Source of the DNA: an uncultured Rikenellaceae bacterium
Lineage (GTDB): Bacteria; Bacteroidota; Bacteroidia; Bacteroidales; VadinHA17
Reading direction: 5' to 3'
NCBI GenBank assembly: GCA_963818525.1
Contig: CAWFSO010000004.1
Location: forward strand, 49,624-113,623
DNA length: 64,000 nt
Position 1 is the first letter of the stretch, and every line of letters begins with the position of its first letter. Below, piece after piece: positions 15-63,503 of this stretch. Under the pieces are notes generated by a model. It saw only the letters and a program-made list of their open reading frames with translations. It was not told the DNA's origin and made no database searches. A program made the translations under genes and the position numbers.

Positions 15-1070
15 ATGGAAAATGTGCCGGCCAGGAGGCCAGGAAAGAGACCCGTAAGACCGGGTACCGACAAGGCTGAAGGAGGAAGAGAGAGATCGGT
101 CAGACCGGGTGCCGGCAAGGCTGAAGGGGGAAGAGAGAGATCATCCAGGCCGGGTGCCGGCAAGGCTGAAGGAGGAAGAGAGAGATCAGCCAGGCCCACC
201 ACCGAAAGGGCTGCAGATGAAAGAAAGAGATCCGCGAGGCCCGGTGCCAGACCCGGAACCAGGCCCCCCGCCGGAGCAGGTAAGAGATCGGTCAGACCGG
301 CTGCCGGAGCAGGTAAGAGATCAGCCAGACCGGCCGCAATACCAGCTGCAGCGGAGCTGATCAGGCTGAACAAATACATTGCAAACAGCGGCGTCTGCGC
401 CCGCCGTGAAGCCGATGAACTCATAAAGAACGGATATATCGCCGTCAACGGTAAAAAGGTCACCGACATGGGTGTCAAGGTAAAACCCACTGACACAGTT
501 GAATACAAAGGCAAAGCACTGACCCCGGGAAAGAAGGTCTATATCCTGCTCAACAAGCCCAAGGGGTACGTGACCACCGTAAAGGATCCGCATGCCGATC
601 TGACCGTACTTGACCTGGTGAAGGATGCCACCACTGAGAGAATATATCCCGTCGGAAGGCTTGACAAGTCAACCACCGGCGTACTGCTTCTCACAAACGA
701 CGGTGACCTGGCAGGGAAACTGACACACCCCAGTTTCGGTGCGAAGAAAATATACCACGTCTTCACTGACAAGGACATTACCAGGCATGATATGGAGGCA
801 ATAGTCAGCGGCGTAACCCTCGATGACGGGAAGGTAAGTGCCGACGCCATCTCCTACCCTGACGCCGAAGACCACACGCAGGTGGGACTCGAGTTGCACT
901 CCGGACAGAACAGGGTTGTCAGACGCATCTTCGAGAAGCTGGGATACCGGGTCAGGAAGCTTGACCGCGTCAGCTTCGCCGGCCTGACGAAGAAGAACCT
1001 TCAGCGCGGCCACTGGAGGCATCTGACCGATAAGGAGGTAAGCATGCTTAAGAGAGGTATCTACAAATAG
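15..1070 (+). CDS. RluB/RsuA-family pseudouridine synthase with a repetitive Arg/Lys-rich N-terminal extension
   Basis: 351-aa ORF. It has an S4 RNA-binding motif (LIRLNKYIANSGVCARREADELIKNGYIAVNGK) followed by the catalytic-Asp motif GRLDKSTTGVLLLTNDG. The first ~110 aa are RPGAGKAEGGRERS-type repeats. Confidence 0.85.
   Translation: MENVPARRPGKRPVRPGTDKAEGGRERSVRPGAGKAEGGRERSSRPGAGKAEGGRERSARPTTERAADERKRSARPGARPGTRPPAGAGKRSVRPAAGAGKRSARPAAIPAAAELIRLNKYIANSGVCARREADELIKNGYIAVNGKKVTDMGVKVKPTDTVEYKGKALTPGKKVYILLNKPKGYVTTVKDPHADLTVLDLVKDATTERIYPVGRLDKSTTGVLLLTNDGDLAGKLTHPSFGAKKIYHVFTDKDITRHDMEAIVSGVTLDDGKVSADAISYPDAEDHTQVGLELHSGQNRVVRRIFEKLGYRVRKLDRVSFAGLTKKNLQRGHWRHLTDKEVSMLKRGIYK
57..338 (+). 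repeat. In-frame coding tandem repeat (about 45 bp / 15 aa units, then shorter AGAGKRS(V/A)RPAA units)
   Basis: The DNA unit ccgggtgccggcaaggctgaagg.ggaagagagagatc is repeated head to tail. The translated units are RPGTDKAEGGRERSV / RPGAGKAEGGRERSS / RPGAGKAEGGRERSA / RPTTERAADERKRSA. Confidence 0.85.
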
Positions 1071-9467: not shown

Positions 9468-10397
9468 TCAGAAATACCTTGGCGATGTTGCACTAACGGA
9501 GTACTCGAACTCATATCTCAGTGACACCTCATGGGTACCCGAGGTGTAGCTGTTCAGGTGACCAAGCTGGTAATCAAAGGAATAACCCAGCTTAAGCTGA
9601 GGTGTGACCTGAAGGTCAAGAAGCGCCACTGCCGCCTTCTCGGCGATCCTGTAGGAACCTCCAATCCAGAGTATGTCAGCGATGATCAGGTTTGCATTCA
9701 GATCCATCTCCAGAGGCTCTGACATTGAATACCGGACAAGCACCGAGGGCTTGACCTTGAAAGCGTCGGAAAAACTAATCAGGGTTCCGGTCAGAAAGTA
9801 AGTCTTGAACATCATGAAATCAGGGGAGACACCTGAATCATTCGACGCATCACTCTGGTACGTAAGAATTGAAGGCACCGACAATCCGGCAAAGAACCTG
9901 TTTGTGTAATAGTAAAATCCTGCACCGATATTGGGCATTGTGTATCGAATGTCTCCCACAAGCAGCGGATCCTGAGGATTGCCGTCAGGGAACTGGAGGT
10001 TGTTGTAATTTGTGTTGCTGAGGTCGACGCCTCCCTTGAGACCCATGGAGAGTCTGCCTTTTCCCAGGCGGACGCTATAGGCATAGAATCCATAAAGCCC
10101 TATATCCTTTGTTACCCCGTAGGTCATGTATTCAGCCACAAACCCCAGTGCTACCTTTTCACGCTTGTTAACAGGGCTGTGCAGCGACAGGTTCTGGAAC
10201 TGCGGTGCACCAACAATTTTAGCCCACTGTTTACGGTATGAGAGGTTGGCGCTGAGAGCACCGCGCGTGCCGGCGTAGGCCGGATTGATAATAAGCCCGT
10301 TGGTCAGATACTGGCTCGTAATGGGCGTTTGCTGTGCCATAAGAGCCTGCTGAAGAGCGACTGCCAGAATGAGTAGTATGAATGACTTTCCTTTCAT
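9468..10397 (-). CDS. Type IX secretion system membrane protein, PorP/SprF family
   Basis: 309 aa. After the signal peptide comes the family N-terminus QQTPITSQYLTNGLIINPAYAG. The body looks like a beta-barrel and ends in an aromatic residue (SPRYF). Confidence 0.85.
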   Translation of the reverse strand: MKGKSFILLILAVALQQALMAQQTPITSQYLTNGLIINPAYAGTRGALSANLSYRKQWAKIVGAPQFQNLSLHSPVNKREKVALGFVAEYMTYGVTKDIGLYGFYAYSVRLGKGRLSMGLKGGVDLSNTNYNNLQFPDGNPQDPLLVGDIRYTMPNIGAGFYYYTNRFFAGLSVPSILTYQSDASNDSGVSPDFMMFKTYFLTGTLISFSDAFKVKPSVLVRYSMSEPLEMDLNANLIIADILWIGGSYRIAEKAAVALLDLQVTPQLKLGYSFDYQLGHLNSYTSGTHEVSLRYEFEYSVSATSPRYF

Positions 10398-22565: not shown

Positions 22566-24524
22566 CTAGATCTCCTTCTTTAATATGATGACCTCTGCCT
22601 GTTTGCGAATGATTTCAGAATAGAATTTCCTGATTGAGGCGTACCTATCGGGAAGGTAGGTGACGGTGGAGAAGCTGATCTCCGACTCAAGCGTGACCTT
22701 TCGGCCGTCAGCGCTGATGTTGTAGATGAACCCGGCTCCTCCCCCATCCATTCGCAAATTTACCGACTGAGGAAGTTCTGCTACGGTCCATCCCTCGGGA
22801 ATGGTTATGGTGCATCTGTATTTCTCCGTTGAGGGGCATGTCAGGTCAATCACCGAAATACGCTCTTCGGCGTAAAATTCATTCGATTCCTTGCGGCCAT
22901 ACAGGACAGGATTCAGGTACATGAAACCGTCGCCATTGTCTGTGGCCCCCGGGATGGCAAGGCTGATCCTCTCAATGACCGGTTCCTCCGGCTTTTCGAG
23001 GTTTTCAAGCTCAAGACCTGAAATTTTCCAGTCTGAATAGACTGACTGCATAAAATCGCGGTAAGCCTCGGTTCCCTGGAGGGAACAGGTCTTCCTCACC
23101 ATCCATGCGTAATAGCTCTCATAGACGTTGGTTGCCTTTCCGGTCAGGCCGCCCTTTTCATCCAGCTCCATTTCGAGGGAGACTGTTTCGCCGTAATGCT
23201 CACCATTGTTCAGGTCTACCCATGACCCTCCCAGTTCGTCAACCAGCCATCCCTGTCCGTTGAGGCACTCCTCCGGCAGCATGTTGAACGGCCTCAGAGG
23301 GTCGGTAGCGTCGATGACATATACTTTCCCCTCTGCCGTTGCTGCAACAGCCACATGATTGAACTTCCTGATGATCGCGAAGAAGGGGTTAACCAGGCCA
23401 TGTTCGCGCGTACTGAGTATCAGCGGATCCGCCTGTAACCCGGCCATCCTGAGCATTGCCAGGAGCATCAGGTTAATGTCTGCCGCATTACCCCGCGCGT
23501 CCTCATAAATTTTTGACATTGAGGCGGAAGCGGTGAAGTCGGAGTAACCGTTCCACATCATATAATCGGAAACCCAGGTAAAGATGCGTCTGAGAATATC
23601 TGTTTCAGATCCTCCCATTGACTTAAGCTCATCTGCCTTTTTCCTGACCACTGCAGCCTTATCAATGTAACCTCCGAAATCTGTCCGGGCCAGCAGCTTC
23701 TCCGAAAGTCTGGGGTAGGTAGGCGAGACCTCCTCGAAGTAGTAACCGGGGATATTGATCTTTGAGAGTTCGAACCCGATCCTCGCGTAAAAGTCCTCCG
23801 AGCCGGTGCTGAACGGCTCCTCACGGTAAGCCGGTATGTTGTTTCCTCTCCATGTCCCAGAGAATCCTTCAACACTGCTGTCTCCGAACAGAACCCTTCG
23901 CTGCCCGCTGTTGTACCTGATGCCGAAGAGATTTCCGCCGGGCACGAATTTGTACTCGAAATAGCCGGGGAACTCGACCTGGAAATTGCATCTCCTGACG
24001 GGGATGTCATGCTGGAACTCCAGGGTATAGAGGGTAAAGTAGTCAGGGCTCTCCAGGGTGTACCTGTATTCAATCACCGTGCCGGGCCTGACATTTGGGA
24101 CCGAGAAACGCAGTGTGCTCGTGTAACGGCTCGTATTTTCATAATAGAGACTCTTTTTGTCGACCAGGCTCTGCACGGTAACCCCATCTTCCAGGTTATA
24201 GGCCGCAGCCCTCATCCCTATGATCTTCTCATCACTGCCATAGGGCAGCTCGACATTGGCGTAATCGAGCCCGTCGGTATTGATGATCTTGATCCTCACA
24301 TGGCAATCGGTAACGACGGTGATCTTCTCGGCGGATCGCATACTTACCATGGCATGGTTTTCCAGGATCACGGCATCAGCCGACGGATCGGGTTCATACA
24401 CTGCCATTTCAAGATCCTCCTTCGGGATCTCGCCGAAGGTGATCTCTTTGATCTGGCCGGCTAGTGATGTGCTGAAGGCCAGGGAGACCAGGCTCAAGGT
24501 TATCAGTCGAAAAGAATTGTGCAT
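22566..24524 (-). CDS. DUF3857 / transglutaminase-like protein (catalytic Cys apparently replaced)
   Basis: 652 aa with a signal peptide. The equivalent core reads ARGNAADINLMLLAMLRMAGL...FNHVAVA, with Ala in place of Cys. It lies 5 nt from the downstream paralog. Confidence 0.7.
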   Translation of the reverse strand: MHNSFRLITLSLVSLAFSTSLAGQIKEITFGEIPKEDLEMAVYEPDPSADAVILENHAMVSMRSAEKITVVTDCHVRIKIINTDGLDYANVELPYGSDEKIIGMRAAAYNLEDGVTVQSLVDKKSLYYENTSRYTSTLRFSVPNVRPGTVIEYRYTLESPDYFTLYTLEFQHDIPVRRCNFQVEFPGYFEYKFVPGGNLFGIRYNSGQRRVLFGDSSVEGFSGTWRGNNIPAYREEPFSTGSEDFYARIGFELSKINIPGYYFEEVSPTYPRLSEKLLARTDFGGYIDKAAVVRKKADELKSMGGSETDILRRIFTWVSDYMMWNGYSDFTASASMSKIYEDARGNAADINLMLLAMLRMAGLQADPLILSTREHGLVNPFFAIIRKFNHVAVAATAEGKVYVIDATDPLRPFNMLPEECLNGQGWLVDELGGSWVDLNNGEHYGETVSLEMELDEKGGLTGKATNVYESYYAWMVRKTCSLQGTEAYRDFMQSVYSDWKISGLELENLEKPEEPVIERISLAIPGATDNGDGFMYLNPVLYGRKESNEFYAEERISVIDLTCPSTEKYRCTITIPEGWTVAELPQSVNLRMDGGGAGFIYNISADGRKVTLESEISFSTVTYLPDRYASIRKFYSEIIRKQAEVIILKKEI

Positions 24525-24609
24525 CGCTTTGATAAGGTTAACAGTCGAAAAAGATTATGCATCGCTTTGATAAGGTTAACAGTCGAAAAAGATTATGCAT
24601 CGCTTTGAT
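24504..24609. repeat. 38-bp tandem repeat (about 2.8 copies) that duplicates the start codon and first codons of the 22566..24524 gene
   Basis: The copies are at 24504-24541, 24542-24579 and 24580-24609. Copies B and C both read cagtcgaaaaagattatgcatcgctttgat; the full 38-bp unit continues aaggttaa, whereas copy C diverges after tttgat. Copy A differs at a few positions and holds the annotated ATG (24524). Confidence 0.9.
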
Positions 24610-34731: not shown

Positions 34732-34876
34732 ATTTGCGATTTGCGATTTGCGATTTGCGATTGGGGGATGTGGTGAGATTTGCGATTTGCGATTTGCGAT
34801 GGGGATGTGGTGAGATTTGCGATTGGTGGTTGTGATAAGATTTGCGACTGTCGATTTGCGATTTGCGATTGCGATT
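34732..34876. repeat. Heptamer microsatellite array (ATTTGCG)n with higher-order structure, abutting the valS start codon
   Basis: Four perfect ATTTGCG copies lie at 34732-34759. Then come GGGGGATGTGGTGAG, three copies, GGGGATGTGGTGAG and further interrupted copies. The array begins 3 nt from the valS ATG (34728). Confidence 0.9.
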
Positions 34877-43100: not shown

Positions 43101-43175
43101 GATTTGCGATTTGCGATTTGCGATTTGCGAATTTTGATTAAATCGACAATCGAAAATCCGAAATCGAAAATTCCT
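43101..43175. repeat. Heptamer array with inverted halves between the convergent genes gatD and mltF
   Basis: (GATTTGC)x4 is followed by gaattttgattaaa and then tcgacaa tcgaaaa tccgaaa tcgaaaa. The second half approximates the reverse complement of the first, so an imperfect long hairpin is possible. Confidence 0.85.
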
Positions 43176-51987: not shown

Positions 51988-52125
51988 TGCTTCACCAGCT
52001 ATACTTCTCAGTCAGTTTTCTAATTTATTAACCAGCTATAATATTTCGTAAGGCCTTTCATCTCTTACCCTTTTATATGTTCTATCAGGCCCCTCATCTC
52101 TTCACCAGCTTTAATACTTCGCGGG
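51981..52125. repeat. murG/murC spacer built from degenerate copies of the murG 3' end / murC start junction
   Basis: The sequence ccctcatctcttcaccagctttaatacttcgc (murG 3' end, 52091-) recurs as ccttcattgcttcaccagctatacttctc (the murC start region, 51981-). Fragments ttaaccagctataatatttcg and ctttcatctcttaccc lie in between. Confidence 0.7.
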
Positions 52126-53210
52126 CAATTACCTCGTCAGAATTTTTTATTGCCAGTCTCCTTATGTTGTCAGAAAGTTGATTTCGCTTTGCGTCGTCAT
52201 GCACCAGTGTCAGGGCCGTATTGATGAGCGCTGTCTGTGCATCGGAGTCTCTTACCAGTATGGCGGCGCCACGGTTGACGAGGGCCATGGCATTGTGCGT
52301 CTGGTGGTCCTCAGCCACGTTGGGTGACGGCACGAGGATGACCGGCTTGCCGACCAGTGCCAGCTCGGAGATGGTACCGGCGCCGGCACGGGAGATGATG
52401 ACATCGGCGGCGGCATAGGCCAGGTCCATACGGTTTATGAAGCCTGTGACAACAGTGTTGGTCACAGCCTTCTCTTCAGCCAGCTCGCGCATCCGGTCAT
52501 AATAGTGACTGCCGGTCTGCCATATCATCTGCACACCGGATGCCTCCACCTGGCCTATGCCGCCACCGACACTGTTGTTGACCGTGCCGGCGCCGAGCGA
52601 CCCGCCCAGAACAAGTATCACCGGCATGCCTGGCTTCAGCCTGAAGTGCTCCATCGCCTCCGCCCTGAGCGCATCCAGGTTGTCATAGGCCTGCCTGACA
52701 GGATTGCCCGTCAGTATTATTTTTTCCTTCGGGAAATATTTTTCCATCCCCTCATAGGCCACGCATATCTTTTCCGCCTTCTTCGCCAGCAGCCTGTTGG
52801 TCACACCGGCATAGCTGTTCTGCTCCTGTATCAGGGTGGGTATGCGCTTCCGCTGCGCCTGCTTCAGCACCGGGCCTGAGACATATCCACCGACGCCCAC
52901 AACAACATCAGGACCGAACCTCCTGATTATCTGTGCCGACTTCATTATGCTGCGGAAGAGCTTCCATGCCACATGGAATGTTTTTGACACTGACACCGCG
53001 TACCAGTCCTGCCACCGACAGCCCCTCTATCTCGTAGCCGGCCTCGGGCACCTTCTGCATCTCCATCTTCCCGATGGCGCCGACAAACAGGATTTTCACC
53101 GCCGGCTCAATGCGCCGCAGGGCGTTGGCAATGGCAATGGCCGGGAAGAGATGCCCGCCGGTGCCGCCTCCGCTGATGATGATCCTTATATCTTTACCCT
53201 CCGCGCTCAT
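52094..53210 (-). pseudogene. murG: UDP-N-acetylglucosamine--LPS/undecaprenyl transferase MurG, interrupted by a 1-nt frameshift as assembled
   Basis: The N-terminal ORF (53210..52908) carries [17 protein letters not shown]. The C-terminal ORF (52996..52094) carries [16 protein letters not shown]...GGSLGA...SRAGAGTISE. The frames switch at an A5 run (T5 on the plus strand, 52981-52985). Confidence 0.85.
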
Positions 53211-53363
53211 GTTAATCTTGTATCTTTCTCTCGCTGCTTATGCTAATCCTTGTGTCTTTCTGTCGCCGTTAATGCTGATACTCCTGTCTTTTCCTTCACC
53301 GCTCATTCTTTTCCTTGTATACTGTCCCGCGCCCCTCATGCCGGTATCTTGTCTGTCTGTTCA
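53203..53363. repeat. ftsW/murG spacer made of five degenerate ~30-36-bp tandem copies of the ftsW-stop/murG-start junction
   Basis: Units start at 53203, 53233, 53265, 53301 and 53329. They read cgcgctcatgttaatcttgtatctttctct / cgctgcttatgctaatccttgtgtctttctgt / cgccgttaatgctgatactcctgtcttttcc... / cgctcattcttttccttgtatactgtcc / cgcgcccctcatgccggtatcttgtctgtctgt. Confidence 0.8.
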
Positions 53364-55961: not shown

Positions 55962-57361
55962 CTATCGTATCTTCAGTGTCACCACGCTCAGCACCGCCAG
56001 TAATATGGCGACGATCCAGAATCGTGTGACTATCTTGGGTTCAGCATATCCTAGCTTCTGATAATGGTGGTGCAGCGGCGCCATGAGGAAGATGCGCCTG
56101 CCCTCGCCGTATTTGCGCTTCGTTCTCTTGAACCAGCTCACCTGTATCATGACCGACAGGCTCTCAATGAAGAAGACTCCGCACAGGATGGGTATCAGAA
56201 GCTCTTTCCTTATCACTATGGCGAAGACGGCGATGATCCCGCCGAGGGTGAGGCTGCCGGTGTCGCCCATGAAGACCTGCGCCGGGTAGGAGTTATACCA
56301 GAGGAAGCCCACCGTGGCACCGGCAAAGGCGGCGGCAAAGATCACCAGCTCGCCAATGTTAGGTAAATACATTATTTGCAGGTAGTTAGCAAAGATGACG
56401 TTACCCGAGACATATGCAAGTATGCCAAGAGTGACCCCTGCGACAGCACTTGTTCCTGTTGCCAGCCCGTCAAGGCCGTCGGTGAGGTTGACGCCGTTGG
56501 AGACGGCCACCACCACGAAGATCACCATCGCCATGAAAACCAGCCATCCGAGCAGCTGCTTCGTCTTCCCCTTGGCAAACGGAACCAGCCATGAGTAGTC
56601 GAACTCGTTATTCTTGACAAAGGGGATGGTGGTCTTGGTAGACTTGATGTTGACTGCCGTTGACTGTGGAATGATTTCTCCCGGCTGCCCTGCTGCCATA
56701 TTCCTGACACATCCGCTGATGTATCCGTTGACATCATCGAGGACATGTTCGCCGACGCCTCCATTGAGGTATCCGTAGACATGCTCTGCGAAACATTTCC
56801 CGTAAAACCCGCTGACACATCTGCATACATATCCGTCGACATATCCGCTGAAGCCACCGTAACACCTGCGGGAGCGCTGACATTGACCCTGACAACCACA
56901 TCATCACTGATATAAAGTGTCAGGGCCACGATAAGACCCAGGCCGACCTGGCCCATGATCTTGAAACGGCCGGCAAGGCCCTCCTTGTTCTTTTTGAATA
57001 TCTTGATGTAATCGTCCATGAATCCGATGAGGCCAACCCAGACAGTGGTGATGATCATAAGGATGATATAGACGTTGTCAAGCCTCGCGAAGAGAAGAAC
57101 GGGAACAAGGATGGATGCAATGATTATGATGCCACCCATCGATGGGGTGCCCTGTTTCCTGTACTGACCCTCGAGGTCGAGATTGCGTATTGTCTCTCCT
57201 ATCTGCCTGCGCTGCAGGTAGTATATCAGCCTTTTCCCGATCAGCACTGCGATTATGAGGGAGGTGATGACAGCAGCAGCAGACCTGAACGAGAGATAAT
57301 TGAATACTCCTGCTCCGGGAACGCCAAGTTCATCGAGGTATCTGAAGAGATAATACAACAT
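55962..57361 (-). pseudogene. mraY: Phospho-N-acetylmuramoyl-pentapeptide transferase MraY, with a repetitive loop insertion and a frameshift as assembled
   Basis: The N-terminal ORF (57361..56522) carries [11 protein letters not shown] and [17 protein letters not shown]. The C-terminal ORF (56699..55962) carries [40 protein letters not shown] and APLHHHY. The two are in different frames across an S/T/D/M-rich repeat segment. Confidence 0.85.
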
Positions 57362-57362
57362 A

Positions 57363-58820
57363 TCAACTTATATTAAATGCTTTACGTAACTCCTCCCTGT
57401 CATCGAAGTGGTGCCTGACACCCTTCACCTCCTGGTATGTCTCATGACCTTTGCCCGCGACGATTATTATGTCACCCGGCGTGGCCAGCATCACGGCAGC
57501 CCTGATGGCATCAGCGCGACCGGTTATGCGTATCATCTTCGGCATGGCGTCAGGGGTTAGTCCCGCTTCCATGTCGTCAATGATTTTGTCAGGATCCTCG
57601 CTGCGGGGATTGTCTGATGTCAGGATAAGCCTGTCGGCTCCGGCCGAGGCGATGCGCGCCATGACGGGCCTCTTGGTGCGGTCACGGTCGCCGCCGGCGC
57701 CCACAACCACTATCAGCCTGCCTGCTCCCTGCCTCAGCCTGTTAACTGCTTCGATCACATTCTCGACGGCGTCGGGTGTATGTGCATAGTCTACGATGCC
57801 GGTGATGCCGTCTGCCGAGCGTATCACCTCCATGCGGCCGTCAACGGGACGGAGCTTGCTGAGTATAGTCAGAACCTCTTCGCTCTGCGCGCCAAGAAGG
57901 ATTGCCGAACCGTATACCGCAAGAAGGTTTGATGCGTTGTAGTCGCCAATGAAGTGAGTCCACACCTCTGTGCCGTTGATTTTGAGCAGCATCCCCTCAA
58001 ATCCCTGCTCGATGATGTTGCACCGGAAGTCGGCCATTTTGCGCATTGAGAAAGTGTGCTTTGCCGCCCTGGTGTTCTGTGTCATCACCATGCCGTTCCG
58101 GTCGTCTGTGTTGACCAGGACAAAAGCTTCTTTCGGGAGGTCGTCGAAGAACTTCTTCTTTGCGGCGAGATAATTGTCAAAGGTCAGGTGGTAGTCGAGA
58201 TGATCATGGGTCAGGTTGGTGAAAACACCTCCCGCGAACTGCAGTCCGGCAATACGTTTCTGGTCAACGGCATGCGAGCTCACCTCCATGAATGCATATT
58301 CGCATCCTGCATCGACCATTTCCGCCAGGAGGGCATTCAGTTTGGCGGGGTCGGGAGTGGTATGCGTTGCATCCCTGCGCTCGAGATGCACATAGTTGCA
58401 GACCGTCGAGAGCAGTCCGCACTTGTATCCCAGCGCCTCGAACATATTATAAAGTAATGTTGCGATGGTGGTCTTGCCGTTGGTGCCCGTGACTCCCGTC
58501 AGCCTTAGCTTTCTTGAAGGGTGATCGTAGAATGCCGAGGCTGCCATTCCTGTTGCCGCTGCCGAGTCGTCGACTACTATCATGGTGACTCCTTCGAAGA
58601 GTTTTTCGGGAAGCGCTTCGCAGATGACTGCTGTTGCCCCTGACTCAACTGCTTTGCCGATGAAGGCGTGACCGTCGCTCTTCGTTCCCCTGACAGCTAC
58701 AAAGAGGCTGCCCGGCTTTACGTCACGGGAGTCGGCTGTTACACCGGTGATGAGCTTGTCTTCATCGCCGTAGATGGACGTCACCCTCAGTTCCTTCAGT
58801 ATATTCTTAAGCTCCTTCAT
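57363..58820 (-). CDS. murE: UDP-N-acetylmuramoyl-L-alanyl-D-glutamate--2,6-diaminopimelate ligase
   Basis: 485-486 aa with [14 protein letters not shown] and the DNPRSEDP motif. I prefer the ATG at 58820 over the GTG at 58823 used in the ORF track. Confidence 0.92.
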
Positions 58821-59001
58821 CACTTTTTCTCAGGTCAGACACTGATCACACTCTGTTTTTTCTTGCTTTATTCATCACTTTTTCTCAGGTCAAAGACTTT
58901 GCACAAACAGTTTCTTCCTTGCTTTATTCATCACTCTTATCATGCTGCCTTGTGCCTCCATTGCTTTTTTCATCTCCTCTTTCATGCTCCCCGGTTCTCC
59001 A
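58816..59001. repeat. ftsI/murE spacer: 55-56-bp tandem repeat (2+ copies) of the murE start region, followed by shorter degenerate ATG-containing pieces
   Basis: U1 (58816-58870) reads ttcatcactttttctcaggtcagacactgatcacactctgttttttcttgctttat. U2 (58871-58926) reads ttcatcactttttctcaggtcaaagactttgcacaaacagtttcttccttgcttta. U3 begins ttcatcactcttatcatgc at 58927. Confidence 0.85.
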
Positions 59002-61035
59002 TCACCTCAGTCTCAATTCAATCGCCACGGTTGCTCCACGCTTAATTCTGACCCCCGGCTGCGGCGACTGACGTGCCACTTTGCCGCGACCGCTATAGTT
59101 CACTCTCAGTCCGCTGTTCTCAAGCATGAACATGGCATCACGAAGGCCCATTCCTACCACATTCGGCATCAGACCCTCTGACCAGGTGAGGTCATCCTTA
59201 CTTACTATGTCCGCTGCTTCACGAAACTTTACCTTATCCTCATTATCAGGATTCAGAGCCCGCAGGTCGCGGTAAAAACTGGTAGCGTACACCTTGTCTG
59301 CTATCTCCTTAAAAACTGGTCCCGACACCACATTGCCGTAATAGACCCAGTTCGACGGCGCATTGACAACTACGATGCATGAATAGAGCGGGTCATCTGC
59401 CGGGAAGTAACCCACAAACGATGCCTGGTATGATATGCGTGCGCCGGAGCGGTACCCGTGCTTTGCATTGGCTATCTGGGCGGTGCCAGTCTTACCGGCG
59501 ATCTTGTAATTGCTGTTCTTCAGGTTCTTGGCAGTGCCGTTCTCCACCACTCCTTCAAGCAGCGACTGCGCCTTGTTGATGGTTGAGCGAGAGCAGATTG
59601 CGTTGGTGATCACCTCCGTCTCAAACGACTTGACCGTCCAGTTGCCGTCACGCACCTCTTTCACGAACCTTGGCTTGACCATCTTCCCGTCATTGGCCAC
59701 GGCGTTGTAGAATGTCAGTATCTGAAGCGGGGTCATAAGCACCTCATAACCGTGCGACATCATCGGGAGCGAAATGCCCGACCAGAGCTTGTCTCCCGGA
59801 TAGCGGATGACAGGCTTGCCTTCGCCCTGTATCTGGAGGCCAAGCGGCTTGTCAATCTGCATCGAATAGAGACGGTCAACATACCGGCGCGGGTTGTCCT
59901 TGTAGCCTTCGCTTATGATCTTGGCGGTGCCAACGTTCGATGAGTGCTCAAAGACCTCGCGGGCTGTGATCTTTCCCAGTCCCTCTTCCTCGTGGTCACG
60001 TATGATCTTGTCGTAGTATCTGACAGTGCCGTCGCCGGTGTTTATTGTGTCATGCAGGTCAACGATGCCATCCTCCATCGCGGCTATCATCGACATCAGC
60101 TTGAAGGTCGATCCCGGCTCGGTGCTCTCTCCCACTGCGTAGTTGTATGTCTCATGGTACTGGCCATCCGAACCTATCTCGAGGTTGGCGATGGCCTTGA
60201 TGTCACCGGTGCGCACCTCCATCACCACCGCGCAGCCGTGATGGGCCTTGTGCCTGGCAAGCTGCTTGTAGAGAGCGTTCTCTGCTGCATCCTGCAGGTC
60301 CAGGTCGATGGTGGTGACGACATTATAACCCGGACGCGCATGCACCGACTCGAGGTTGTCGACATCGATCCATGCCCCTCCCGTCAGGCGCTGCTGCACC
60401 TTCAGCCCGTCCTTCCCGGCGAGGTAGCTGTTGAATGATCCCTCAATACCGACAATACTCGTGATGGTGTCATCAGTGATGTATCCGATGGTACGCCGTG
60501 CCAGCAGCCCATTGGGCATGATGCGCCTGTTCTCGGGCTGGTAGACAAACCCTCCCCTGAACTTACCGTGGCGGAAGATCGGGAGCTGCTTGAGGTGGCT
60601 GAGCGTTTCATAGCTGACGTGCCTTTTGATGAGGTAGTACCTGTCGCCGCGCTTGCGGGCGTTGGTCAGGGTCGTCCTCCACCCTTCGGGGGAGTTGCCT
60701 CCGACATATTTCGAGAGACCGCGGCAGAGGCCGCTGATGCCGTTGGCCCAGGTGGTGTCGGCCATGCCCGAGCTGCGGGTGTCCATGTAGACGGTGTAGT
60801 ACGGGATGGAGCTTGCAAGGATGCGGCCGTCGTCGGAGAGGATGTCGCCCCTGGCGGCCTGGTCGACCTGCCTGCGGAAGACGACCTTGTCGGCCATGGC
60901 GGCCCACTTGTCAGACTGCACGAACTGCAGGATGATAATGCGTACGAAGACGGCAATGGCCATCAGCACCACAACGGCGTAAATGATGCCGGTGCGTGCA
61001 AGTATCTGGTCTTTTGGTTTCGTCTTCTTACTCAT
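59002..61035 (-). CDS. ftsI: Penicillin-binding protein 3 / FtsI transpeptidase
   Basis: 677 aa with an N-terminal TM helix, a PBP dimerisation domain, the motifs STFK (PGSTFKLMS), SSN (HSSNVG) and KTG (AGKTGTAQ), and a C-terminal PASTA-like domain. Confidence 0.92.
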   Translation of the reverse strand: MSKKTKPKDQILARTGIIYAVVVLMAIAVFVRIIILQFVQSDKWAAMADKVVFRRQVDQAARGDILSDDGRILASSIPYYTVYMDTRSSGMADTTWANGISGLCRGLSKYVGGNSPEGWRTTLTNARKRGDRYYLIKRHVSYETLSHLKQLPIFRHGKFRGGFVYQPENRRIMPNGLLARRTIGYITDDTITSIVGIEGSFNSYLAGKDGLKVQQRLTGGAWIDVDNLESVHARPGYNVVTTIDLDLQDAAENALYKQLARHKAHHGCAVVMEVRTGDIKAIANLEIGSDGQYHETYNYAVGESTEPGSTFKLMSMIAAMEDGIVDLHDTINTGDGTVRYYDKIIRDHEEEGLGKITAREVFEHSSNVGTAKIISEGYKDNPRRYVDRLYSMQIDKPLGLQIQGEGKPVIRYPGDKLWSGISLPMMSHGYEVLMTPLQILTFYNAVANDGKMVKPRFVKEVRDGNWTVKSFETEVITNAICSRSTINKAQSLLEGVVENGTAKNLKNSNYKIAGKTGTAQIANAKHGYRSGARISYQASFVGYFPADDPLYSCIVVVNAPSNWVYYGNVVSGPVFKEIADKVYATSFYRDLRALNPDNEDKVKFREAADIVSKDDLTWSEGLMPNVVGMGLRDAMFMLENSGLRVNYSGRGKVARQSPQPGVRIKRGATVAIELRLR

Positions 61036-61403
61036 TGACTGGAGTTCTTTTCTGGCTGGGTGGTTGGATTGGGGTACTGTTGATTGCTGGCTGGCTCTGA
61101 ATTTGTGTTTGCGGTGGCTGACTAGTGTGTGTTATACTGATCTGATGGTGTGGCTGCTTTGGGTTACTTATGACTGTTTTTGTGACTGTTGACTGGTTGG
61201 TGATCAATATTGGGCTGTTTGATTCTTGTGATTGCTGGATCTCTTTAACTGGGTAATTGCGGTGGTTTTATTTATTTCTGCTGTACTATTCTTACTGTAA
61301 GGTAACTTTGGGTTTGTTGCGTATTACTGTTCTGATCTGACTGTCTGATTACTTTGACTTACTCTTGTATTCTTGTCCAATTCTTCCTGCTTGGTTGCAT
61401 GAT
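61036..61403. repeat. 368-bp strand-skewed spacer (GT-rich on plus, AC-rich on the transcribed minus strand) between ftsL and ftsI, with a recurring TGACTG/CAGTCA motif
   Basis: The plus strand is dominated by T and G. TGACTG-like words recur (ttgactggag, ggctgactag, tatgactg, gtgactgttgactgg, atctgactgtctga). No ORF of 60 aa or more lies on the minus strand in this interval. Confidence 0.8.
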
Positions 61404-62059: not shown

Positions 62060-62960
62060 TCAGATTTTCTCCGCTATCCTTAACCTTGCACTGCGTGCCC
62101 TTCTGTTTTCTGAAATCTCCTCCGGCGTTGGAACGATCACCTTGCGGTTCACAGCCTTGAACGGAGTTGACAAGTTCCCGTAGAAATCCTTGTCGCTCTC
62201 ACCCTCGAAATTGCCGGTGCGGATGAAATTCTTCACCAGCCTGTCCTCAAGCGAGTGGTATGTTATCACTGCCAGCCGGCCTCCGGGCTTCAGTACCTGA
62301 AGGGCCTGCGAGAGCATCTCCGTGAGAGCATCCAGCTCATGGTTCACCTCAATGCGTAACGACTGAAACAGCCGTGCATAAAACTTATTCTCCTCCCATG
62401 ACGGGACCAGTCCCGCAAGCGCCGACATGAGGTCACTGACGGTATTTATCGGTTTGCTTAACGCGTGCTTTGACTATGGCCGCTGCCAGCTTCCGTGAGT
62501 TGGTCAGTTCGCCGTACTTGTAAAAAACATCTGCCAGCTTCTCTTCCTCGTAAGTGCGGAGGATGTCCGATGCCCTGAGGGTCGACTGGCGGTTCATGCG
62601 CATGTCGAGTTCCGCATCGCTGCGGAAGGAGAAGCCCCTCTCCTGCTCATCGAACTGATGAAACGAGACGCCGAGATCAGCTATCAGTCCGTCGATTTCG
62701 GTTATCCCGAGGTAGCGAAGGTTGTTCTTCAGGTACCGGAAGTTCTGGTTGAGGAGGGTGAACCGTGCGTCGCTGATGCTGTTCGCTTCGGCATCGGCAT
62801 CCTGGTCAAAAGCAATGAGCCTGCCTGAGGTGAGCTGGTCGAGGATGGCGCGCGAGTGTCCTCCGCCTCCGAAGGTTACGTCGACATAAATCCCGTCGGG
62901 CCTGAGGTTTAGCCCTGCAATGCTCTCTGTCAGCAGTGCCGGGAGGTGATAAATGACCAT
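62060..62960 (-). pseudogene. rsmH: 16S rRNA (cytosine1402-N4)-methyltransferase RsmH, frameshifted as assembled
   Basis: The N-terminal ORF (62960..62433) carries VDVTFGGGGHS and DLGVSFHQFD. The C-terminal ORF (62428..62060) carries FQSLRIEVNHEL and GRLAVITYHSLEDR. The second frame read upstream gives KPINTVSDLMSALAG, which continues the family alignment. Confidence 0.85.
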
Positions 62961-63424
62961 TATGCGGAACCGGTGTCGGGATTACCAAGCAGCTTCTCCG
63001 CCAGGTTGGCAAAGTCGTCGGAAGGAATGTCGATACGGGCGTATACCTCTTCAGCCCACATCTCTATGCGTCCGTCCTGCCCGGCGAGAACAACATCCTT
63101 CGCTATGCCCGCAAGGTCAAGGAGGCGCTTGGGTATCAGAAGCCTGTTGCTGCTGTCGAGCGACACCTCTGCCGTGCCCTTGAAGAAATTGCGGAGAAAG
63201 ATATTGTGCTCCCTGTTGTATGGGTTGATCCTGCTGCGGATCTTCTCGAGCTGCCTGTTCCAGTCGTCAATGGAGTAAAGGACGAGGCACCCTTCGAAGA
63301 TATCCTTTCTGACCACGAAGCGATCTTCAGCTGCCTTAGGCATCTGCTTCTTGAACGCGGCGGGGAGGATTACTCTTCCCTTGGCATCCAGCCTGCATGA
63401 ATAATCGCCGATAAATGTGGCCAT
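62960..63424 (-). CDS. mraZ: Transcriptional regulator MraZ
   Basis: 154 aa with two SpoVT/AbrB-like halves (RLDAKGRVILPAAFKK and LDSSNRLLIPKRLLD). It is the first gene of the dcw cluster. Confidence 0.92.
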   Translation of the reverse strand: MATFIGDYSCRLDAKGRVILPAAFKKQMPKAAEDRFVVRKDIFEGCLVLYSIDDWNRQLEKIRSRINPYNREHNIFLRNFFKGTAEVSLDSSNRLLIPKRLLDLAGIAKDVVLAGQDGRIEMWAEEVYARIDIPSDDFANLAEKLLGNPDTGSA

Positions 63425-63460: not shown

Positions 63461-63503
63461 TTTTCCCACTTCCCTCCACTTTCCTCCATTTTTCTTCACT
63501 TTT
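63461..63503 (-). promoter_or_regulatory. Candidate MraZ operator: four direct GTGG-type boxes with exact 10-bp spacing
   Basis: The minus strand reads AAAGTGAAGA AAAATGGAGG AAAGTGGAGG GAAGTGGGAA. On the plus strand CAC/CAT falls at 63467-69, 63477-79, 63487-89 and 63497-99. The array lies 37-80 nt upstream of the mraZ ATG. Confidence 0.55.

Follow-up and report, generated by a model that had tools for sequence, protein, structure and literature searches.

The window analysed here, a 64,000-nt stretch of contig CAWFSO010000004.1 from an uncultured Rikenellaceae bacterium whose nearest genomes are uncultured Bacteroidales metagenome-assembled genomes, carries on its minus strand a division and cell wall (dcw) cluster. 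The genes of this cluster are ordered mraZ, rsmH, an FtsL_2-type gene, an ftsI-type gene for a class-B penicillin-binding protein, murE, mraY, murD, ftsW, murG and murC, and are followed by homologues of ftsQ, ftsA and ftsZ that were assigned by position. The ftsI gene ends in a TGA at 59004-59002 and murE starts with an ATG at 58820-58818, and the spacer of 181 nt that separates them (58821-59001) holds the tandem array that is the subject of this report. The product of murE scores 611 bits against the NCBIfam equivalog NF001126 (cutoff 373 bits), and its N-terminus lines up with the MurE starts of relatives. The spacer has an unusual composition, with 43% A and 73% purine compared with 24.5% A in the window.

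The initial annotation had described tandem 55/56-bp duplications of the murE start region in this spacer, and on this Tandem Repeats Finder (TRF), a repeat search, exact-mer counts and Smith-Waterman alignment agree. TRF reports a single array (58816-58935, period 55, 2.2 copies, 84% matches, score 170), and the repeat search recovers a 47-nt pair (58816-58862 and 58871-58917, 81% identity) together with a 36-nt family that has three members (58858-58893, 58914-58949 and 58956-58991; 67-75% identity) and carries the repetition out to 58991. The 22-mer TGACCTGAGAAAAAGTGATGAA has two exact occurrences, one being the genuine start of murE; there are exactly two instances of the 21-mer TGACCTGAGAAAAAGTGATGA in the 64 kb (58817-58837 and 58872-58892, minus strand), where shuffles lead one to expect 0.01; and GTGATGAATAAAGCAAG is present in two exact copies and one with 3 mismatches. 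When the murE start region (-17 to +38) was aligned with the rest of the spacer the Smith-Waterman score had a z of 7.7, and none of 1000 shuffles scored as high. These are head-to-tail copies with similarity beyond chance, as is usual for an intergenic tandem repeat.

Read 5' to 3' on the mRNA, the ftsI tail (...GAATTGAGACTGAGGTGATGG) is followed by two older units of ~42 nt, GGGAGCATGAAAGAGGAGATGAAAAAAGCAATGGAGGCACAA and GGCAGCATGATAAGAGTGATGAATAAAGCAAGG..., and then by two units of 55/56 nt, each of which terminates in TGACCTGAGAAAAAGTGATGAA, the second such terminus being the genuine murE start (Table 1). Unit identities were taken from an ATG-anchored comparison, which replaced an unanchored MAFFT alignment that misaligned the ftsI end. 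The 55/56-nt units are 82% identical overall and perfect only in a 5' block of 17 nt and a 3' block of 14 nt, with a central ~25 nt at ~60%, and as such the earlier wording of near-identical full units was too strong. As for the third, partial unit that had been described, the exact 21-mer is present twice, not three times. The two perfect blocks meet at the unit boundary and together span -17 to +14 around the decoy ATG. The real murE leader contains a TGA in every frame (58837-58835, 58832-58830 and 58822-58820), so any upstream frame stops just before or at the murE ATG; this leader is exact in the sister genome, L165, and recognisable in the relatives L085, L002, L004, L006 and L084.

The spacer and its edges contain ATGs at 59002, 58985, 58973, 58961, 58943, 58931, 58875 and 58820, the last being the real murE start. 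That the decoys open very short frames, as proposed initially, is correct for the first and the last decoy, with ORFs (open reading frames) of 6 and 9 codons, but not for the five ATGs from 58985 to 58931, which are in frame with one another and share a single ORF of 31 codons, which takes in the older units of ~42 nt and the first unit of 56 nt. The 6-codon frame has an ATG (59002-59000) that shares bases with the ftsI stop (TGATG) and a TGA that shares bases with the next ATG (ATGA), and the 9-codon frame begins 14 nt past the stop of the 31-codon frame and ends 25 nt short of the murE ATG. The stop-to-start chain from ftsI to murE thus runs ftsI TGA/ATG (-1), 6 codons, (-4), 31 codons, (+14), 9 codons, (+25), murE. 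These frames cross A5 and A6 tracts in which assembly indels are possible, and their exact extent is accordingly uncertain.

From -17 to +5 the decoy at 58875 and the murE start have an identical context. In Bacteroidetes, initiation depends on A-rich, unstructured RNA and not on Shine-Dalgarno pairing, and there is normally a depletion of AUGs around true starts (PMC6847099). Given that Bacteroidia choose their starts in this way, and that the decoys have a start-like context in unstructured A-rich RNA, it is probable that they are translated to some degree. The fold of the spacer RNA has a minimum free energy of -25.7 kcal/mol compared with a shuffle mean of -31.4 (z = +1.68), and is therefore less structured than shuffled sequence. 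A search of the spacer with the Rfam covariance models (E <= 10) returned just sub-threshold chance matches to snoRNA and miRNA families (E >= 0.055). Scans of the spacer for sigma-70 promoters, with a tool that does not cover Bacteroidetes-type promoters, and for intrinsic terminators gave no site, and inspection by eye found no TAnnTTTG promoter motif there. In the fold and terminator scans of the spacer there were neither alternative hairpins nor a terminator tied to an upstream ORF of the kind that would mark an attenuator.

The array differs in copy number between close genomes. L165 is closely related to the window (98.5% amino acid identity in FtsI, 95.7% in MurE and 92.2% in MurC; 96% nucleotide identity in ftsI), and its ftsI-murE spacer is homologous, with two extra upstream units of ~40 nt and one 55-nt unit fewer. 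TRF detects in it an array of 39 nt x 2.6 at 9809-9910, and the leader TGACCTGAGAAAAAGTG is present once, as the real leader. In the best alignment the single L165 unit is a chimera of the centres of the two units of the window. The paralogous units have diverged by 18%, which is not below the neutral divergence of the window and L165 (15.9%, fourfold sites of ftsI), so that the 55-nt duplication probably predates the split of the two, and L165 probably dropped one copy by unequal exchange. The NCBI assemblies L169 and L170, with identical MurE proteins, have ftsI-murE spacers of clearly different length (Table 1). Comparison of copy number with relatives, one of the checks suggested at the outset, thus bears out the duplication: copy number differs both between the window and L165 and between L169 and L170, as in a variable-number tandem repeat (VNTR), and the independent assemblies agree in the parts that they share, homopolymers included.

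The junction in more distant relatives indicates where the units come from. The spacing of ftsI and murE was compared among 155 Bacteroidales loci at which both genes could be placed, and in most near relatives the junction is compact, at -4 to +2 nt (negative spacer lengths are overlaps, here and in Table 1). The two genes overlap by TGATG (-1) in L001 and L081 and by ATGA (-4) in L008, L009 and L086, and are 2 nt apart in L005, L007 and L087 as well as in L162 and L166-168 (the latter two sets with MurE identities of ~90-91%). A subclade consisting of L002, L004, L006, L084 and L085 has spacers of 39-67 nt which end in GA(A/T)(C/T)TGA(A/G/T)AA(A/T)GAAGTGATG. In L085 the murE-proximal end of the spacer, GAACTGAGAAAGAAGTGATG, nearly matches the ftsI coding tail of the compact L001, GAACTGAGAATGAAGTGATG (ELRMK, then stop), and the last mini-ORFs of L085 and L169 end in ...DELRKK and ...YELRLN before their stops, where the FtsI tails of the same genomes read IQLRQK and IELRLK. 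These mini-ORF tails echo the FtsI tails; the murE leader is thus paralogous to the end of ftsI, and the duplicated unit is the stop/start junction itself. This gives good support to one of the two explanations put forward in the initial annotation, that the repeats are relics of junction duplication, which accounts for the compact relatives, for the intermediates with FtsI-like tails and for the variable copy number.

The window has at least four junction arrays, of which only that at ftsI-murE was named previously. Ahead of the real murG start (ATGAGCGCGG at 53210) the ftsW-murG junction carries four degenerate ~32-nt copies of that start (ATGAGGGGCG..., ATGAGCGGTG..., ATTAACGGCG... and ATAAGCAGCG...), two of which have lost the ATG (ATT, ATA); decay of decoy ATGs is also seen in L165, as ACG, AGG, ATT and ATA variants. 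The ftsW-murG junction has three copies in L165 and is a 4-nt overlap in L161, L162, L163 and L169. Between murG and murC there are two additional copies of the junction, comprising the murG tail (EVLKLVKR, then stop), the ATGA and the murC start MKGLTN, and the same junction is compact, with an ATGA overlap, in L165, L161, L163 and L169. L162 has at murG-murC (9905-10045) an independent, near-perfect duplication of 56 nt, in which a chimeric mini-ORF, MRGLTNEIITREVLKLAKR followed by a stop, overlaps both flanking genes by ATGA. The fourth array lies outside the dcw cluster at the start of a gene for a protein with a signal peptide, and its unit consists of a 9-nt leader and the first 29 nt of the gene (atcaaagcgATGCA(T/C)AAT...), the last copy being the real start (ATG 24524); its decoy ATGs open a 20-codon ORF that is out of frame. 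At mraY-murD, L006 has a 36-nt unit x 5.3 whose five complete copies each encode a 7-codon peptide, MNQAGCG or a close variant, and L002 has an independent array at that junction as well. Breakpoint microhomology was sought by eye in L162 and in the 24.5-kb array of the window, and nothing clear enough to claim was seen there. No sequence relationship exists between arrays of different junctions (all z <= 1.5, against five other junction spacers), and the ftsI-murE motif is confined to its locus in the 64 kb; a dispersed mobile repeat was rejected on these grounds.

Table 1. Features of the ftsI-murE locus, other junction arrays of the window, and spacer lengths at five dcw junctions in the window and in relatives
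Feature	Position	Strand	Basis or lengths
ftsI-type class-B penicillin-binding protein, 677 aa	59002..61035	-	ORF translation; NCBIfam SpoVD/PBP2/FtsI families; dcw context
Mini-ORF 0, MENRGA then stop, 6 codons	58982..59002	-	ORF scan
Mini-ORF 1, 31 codons, MKEEMKKAMEAQGSMIRVMNKARKKLFVQSL then stop	58890..58985	-	ORF scan; orthologue in L165
Mini-ORF 2, MNKARKNRV then stop, 9 codons	58846..58875	-	ORF scan
Older unit copy GGGAGCATGAAAGAGGAGATGAAAAAAGCAATGGAG	58956..58991	-	Repeat family; 75% identical to next copy
Older unit copy GGCAGCATGATAAGAGTGATGAATAAAGCAAGGAAG, with decoy ATG 58931	58914..58949	-	Repeat family, ATG listing
56-nt decoy tandem unit, 3' end TGACCTGAGAAAAAGTGATGAA (58892-58871), decoy ATG 58875	58871..58926	-	TRF
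55-nt tandem unit closest to murE: real leader and murE bases 1-5	58816..58870	-	TRF
murE leader TGACCTGAGAAAAAGTG, 17 nt	58821..58837	-	Read from sequence
murE (UDP-MurNAc-L-Ala-D-Glu:meso-DAP ligase), 485 aa	57363..58820	-	NF001126
ftsW-murG array	53211..53335 (TRF 53182-53341, period 32 x 4.9, 70%)	-	TRF; Smith-Waterman z = 5.0
murG-murC array	51988..52093	-	Sequence; Smith-Waterman z = 11.1, 0/1000 shuffles; not detected by TRF
Array at start of signal-peptide gene, outside dcw	24496..24609	-	TRF 38 nt x 3, 94%; Smith-Waterman z = 17.3
Junction spacers, window			ftsI-murE 181, mraY-murD ~3, murD-ftsW 94, ftsW-murG 125, murG-murC 106 nt
Junction spacers, L165			ftsI-murE 203, mraY-murD 63, murD-ftsW 94, ftsW-murG 61, murG-murC -4 nt
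Junction spacers, L169			ftsI-murE 169, mraY-murD 64, murD-ftsW 3, ftsW-murG -4, murG-murC -4 nt
Junction spacers, L170			ftsI-murE 64, mraY-murD 64, murD-ftsW 3, ftsW-murG -4, murG-murC -4 nt
Junction spacers, L162			ftsI-murE 2, mraY-murD 3, murD-ftsW 4, ftsW-murG -4, murG-murC 52 nt

Within the coding regions of this clade every tandem repeat has a period that is a multiple of 3 (45 and 33 in the window, in ORF 15-1070; 66 and 21 in the FtsL_2 genes of L165 and L169; and 24/48 and 51 in L010), in contrast to the unrestricted periods of the junction arrays (55/56, 39/42, 32, 38, 56 and 36). This contrast would fit a selection filter acting on frequent small tandem duplications, under which those that keep the frame and those that cross a gene boundary would both be tolerated. 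We consider it likely that the ftsI-murE spacer consists of locally generated, copy-number-variable tandem duplications of the ftsI-stop/murE-start junction, and that these are relics. The ancestor would have had a compact, translationally coupled junction, with a TGATG or ATGA overlap or a gap of 2 nt. Small tandem duplications would arise frequently in the clade, probably from replication slippage or unequal exchange, and one that spans a gene boundary would be harmless, as its first copy finishes the upstream gene and its last copy begins an intact downstream gene. The stretch between the first and the last copy would then turn into new intergenic DNA, and later rounds would make the array grow or shrink as older copies decay. 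As the operon is packed with overlaps of 1-4 nt, boundary-spanning events would copy the stop/start overlap, which would give each unit its ATG; and since each copy bears the downstream ATG with its context, decoy starts and mini-ORFs would be automatic by-products. With a TGA in all frames of the leader, upstream translation would end at most 25 nt before the murE ATG, and the net effect is more likely to be a weaker translational coupling of ftsI and murE than a dedicated switch.

Several observations weigh against the view that the copies are relics of this junction. In the window itself the units show no significant similarity either to murE coding positions +1 to +38 (z = 0.6) or to the ftsI tail (z = 0.0), and the junction origin of this particular array would thus lean on the intermediates in relatives. 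The junction spacers differ from those of L165 at 23 of 280 aligned sites (8.2%), compared with 88 of 531 fourfold sites of ftsI and ftsW (16.6%). The start blocks of the units are perfect while their centres have diverged, and no recognisable unit of either genome, window or L165, has lost the core G(T/A)GATGAA. In addition, AUGs close to starts are as a rule selected against in Bacteroidetes (PMC6847099), so lasting decoys are not obviously neutral. The low divergence, the perfect start blocks and the retained core could be a sign that the start regions of the decoys are constrained. Equally, they could be due to gene conversion with the real leader, to the recency of copies that are still duplicating, to the low mutability or base composition of A-rich sequence, to alignment bias, with gaps absorbing diverged segments, or to ascertainment of the units via that very motif.

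These same observations bear on the alternative that survives best, a translation-tuning device in which ribosomes leaving ftsI would restart at the overlapping decoy ATG and be relayed along the chain of mini-ORFs to murE, or in which 30S subunits would use the unstructured, A-rich repeats as standby sites, with copy number setting the FtsI:MurE ratio as an evolvable rheostat. We found no support for a dedicated regulatory function of the array, and a tuning role, including modulation of murE translation by upstream mini-ORFs as in the other explanation of the initial annotation, is possible but, in our judgement, unlikely. It would account for the stop-to-start chain, which is found alike in L165, L085, L169, L162 and L006, for the murE-like context of the decoy at 58875, for decoy-start blocks that are perfect between units with diverged centres, for spacers that are less diverged than fourfold sites, and for the unusually unstructured RNA with 43% A; and that short ORFs may feed ribosomes to a coupled downstream gene is a recognised idea (PMC12548453). 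However, when greedy chains from each stop to the next ATG were built for 13 expanded junctions, dinucleotide-shuffled spacers tiled and closed the final gap equally well or better (P = 0.13-1.0 in the 13 cases), and the relay layout was rejected as a designed feature. No native chain overruns the real start (0/13, compared with 14-56% of shuffles), because the TGA-rich leader was inherited from the junction; the cases are not independent, and this difference was not counted as evidence. The final gaps in the window, of 25-32 nt, also exceed the ~20 nt at which termination-reinitiation has nearly gone in E. coli and H. volcanii, a limit that comes from organisms outside the Bacteroidia (PMC10666635). 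Further, the presence and copy number of the arrays vary among very close relatives, ATGs have been lost in older arrays, and the 31-codon peptide is not conserved.

A broader form of the tuning idea, to which we give still less credence, is that array copy number in the Bacteroidia, which are blind to Shine-Dalgarno sequences, serves as a selectable, heritable rheostat for the FtsI:MurE, FtsW:MurG and MurG:MurC ratios. If this were true, each junction copy would add a decoy start and a mini-ORF that tax or relay ribosomes between essential dcw genes, the perfect start blocks and reduced spacer divergence would be the footprint of selection, and copy number, which is polymorphic even within a species (L169 compared with L170), would be what sets the ratios.

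That G(T/A)GATGAA in its purine-rich context forms an array of sites bound by a protein or small RNA that regulates the dcw mRNA, the ATGs being incidental, is highly improbable. All recognisable units in the window and in L165 do carry the motif, in spacers that are somewhat conserved, but it is no more than the overlap of stop and start at the junction, the arrays at other junctions have different, locally derived sequences, there is no Rfam match, and the presence of the array is not conserved among relatives. It is more improbable again that the 31-codon ORF at 58985-58890 is a true small-protein gene inserted between ftsI and murE. This ORF is intact in the window and in L165, with the same start and stop positions, and its ATG overlaps the stop of the mini-ORF before it (ATGA coupling); however, 12 nucleotide changes between the two genomes alter 10 of the 31 codons, with no synonymous change, and it was on this substitution pattern that a small-protein gene was rejected. 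The ORF is also made of repeat units, encodes a lysine- and glutamate-rich peptide of low complexity, and is missing from all other relatives, the spacers of which are too short to hold it. It shows neither the conserved peptide nor the stalling motif expected of a regulatory leader peptide. We give equally little weight to an assembly artefact as the source of the repeat or of its copy number: there are single-base frameshifts by short homopolymers in rsmH, mraY and murG that are typical of error-prone long-read assembly, but mis-assembly of identical repeats cannot collapse or expand copies that are 16-18% diverged, the independent assembly of L165 has a homologous array that matches base for base in the shared parts and has the same A-run lengths, and like arrays are found in several further independent assemblies, L002 (with a SPAdes-style NODE_ name), L006, L162 and L169 (assemblers unstated).

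The frameshifts split rsmH (~62430), mraY (~56700-56900) and murG (~52950-53000) into two ORFs each. The mraY and murG genes are essential, and murG of L165 has a similar break. These splits are probably indel errors of long-read assembly.

Arrays that combine tandem units with short ORFs have counterparts in known systems, the nearest of which is mycobacterial. The interspersed repeat units of mycobacteria (MIRUs) described by Supply et al. in 1997 reportedly have internal ORFs that overlap the starts and stops of the flanking genes. A MIRU has been characterised as a tandem unit within an operon, which varies in copy number and has internal ORFs whose coupling to the flanking gene is at -4 (PMC12548453). 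The arrays described here resemble MIRU-VNTRs in that tandem units of 40-100 nt lie between co-directional genes of an operon and vary in copy number between strains, and in that short ORFs overlap the flanking genes, by which coupling may be retained: the ftsI stop and the first decoy ATG share bases (TGATG, 59004-59000), the stop of the last mini-ORF overlaps the real start in L162, L085 and L169, and both ends are overlapped in L162 and L085. Unlike in MIRUs, the last mini-ORF of the window ends 25 nt before murE and is not coupled at -4, although the frames cross A5/A6 runs that assembly indels could affect. More importantly, MIRUs are a single dispersed family which apparently inserts at start codons, whereas each array here derives from its own junction (z <= 1.5), and the 21-mer of the ftsI-murE array does not recur elsewhere in the window as one sequence family at many loci would.

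The relationship to coupled gene pairs is of a different kind. The ftsI/murE, ftsW/murG and murG/murC overlaps seen in relatives are coupled ATGA/TGATG pairs, taken here as the ancestral state, and the overlap is the core of each unit. In the window these overlaps have been pulled apart by 106-181 nt of junction copies, and translational coupling is not expected at such distances (PMC10666635); the ftsI stop and murE ATG are neither overlapping nor within the ~10-20 nt of coupled pairs, being 181 nt apart, and even the last mini-ORF ends 25 nt away. As in bacterial upstream ORFs and leader peptides, there are short ORFs 5' of a gene on the same mRNA with recognisable start contexts. Upstream ORFs, however, lie in a 5' leader and these in the interior of an operon, with a gene on either side, and in contrast to leader-peptide attenuators there is no conserved peptide, alternative structure, terminator or conserved presence. 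Minisatellites that evolve by slippage share with these arrays the head-to-tail copies, their decay with age, and expansion and contraction between close relatives, but in the present arrays the unit is systematically the junction of stop and start between essential genes, and the events recur at several junctions of a single operon and in several lineages.

What the present analysis adds is that junction duplications of variable copy number have arisen repeatedly and independently across the dcw operon in a Bacteroidales clade, and in the literature that we searched no earlier description of junction duplication producing decoy starts in bacteria was found. The arrays show how intergenic DNA may arise in a tight operon of essential genes, in which overlaps of 1-4 nt become spacers of 50-200 nt. 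Close spacing of genes in operons has been attributed to deletion bias, with duplication not mentioned, and junction duplication would run opposite to the deletion-driven compaction usually invoked (PMC1480536). The arrays may also be regarded as natural experiments on start-site selection and coupling in a phylum that lacks Shine-Dalgarno pairing and normally has few AUGs near its starts (PMC6847099). In practical terms, decoy starts may mislead gene callers, and the spacers are candidate markers for strain typing. If the arrays are neutral, their value is chiefly evolutionary and for annotation.

Fourfold divergence between the window and L165 is very uneven along the dcw cluster (mraZ 2/68, ftsI 53/334, ftsW 35/197, murC 60/216), and the ftsW-murG junction, an array of 61 nt in L165, is compact in L161, the MurC of which is 98.9% identical to that of L165. 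This unevenness and the contrast between L161 and L165 suggest recombination inside the dcw cluster. Upstream of ftsI, the spacer that follows the FtsL_2-type gene (61036-61403, minus strand, 368 nt) is extremely rich in A and C, with 45% A, 27% C, 14% G and 14% T on the mRNA strand and a single ATG; it is kept in L165 (7357-7763, 407 nt, 12.5% diverged) and is just 37 nt long in L162. Just 5' of mraZ (62960-63424, minus strand) there is a periodic 10-nt repeat at 63461-63503, TTTTCTCCAC x 4.4, or GTGGAGAAAA on the mRNA strand, which we take to resemble the operator of direct repeats that MraZ binds in other bacteria.

In-frame repeats are also found outside the junctions. ORF 15-1070 (plus strand) has at 60-334 repeats of 45 nt x 4 and 33 nt x 2 in an N-terminal extension rich in Arg, Gly and Glu, and its downstream part (LIRLNKYIANSGVCARREADELI...) resembles by eye the N-terminus of an S4-domain pseudouridine synthase; these repeats belong with the small tandem duplications to which the whole clade tends. 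The murE gene of L165 has at 10227-10312 an in-frame insertion of 28 residues rich in Ser and Gly, after MurE residue ~75, and further in-frame repeats lie in the dcw genes of L010 (1229-1363 and 3144-3298) and in the FtsL_2 genes of L165 (6819-6964) and L169 (1657-1806). Elsewhere in the window, the heptamer GATTTGC forms an array of ~20 copies at 34732-34876, with super-periods of 25 and 37 nt, and recurs at 43101-43171 as GATTTGC x 4.3 followed by AAATCGA x 4.6; of these two heptamer arrays, one sits in a divergent and the other in a convergent intergenic region.

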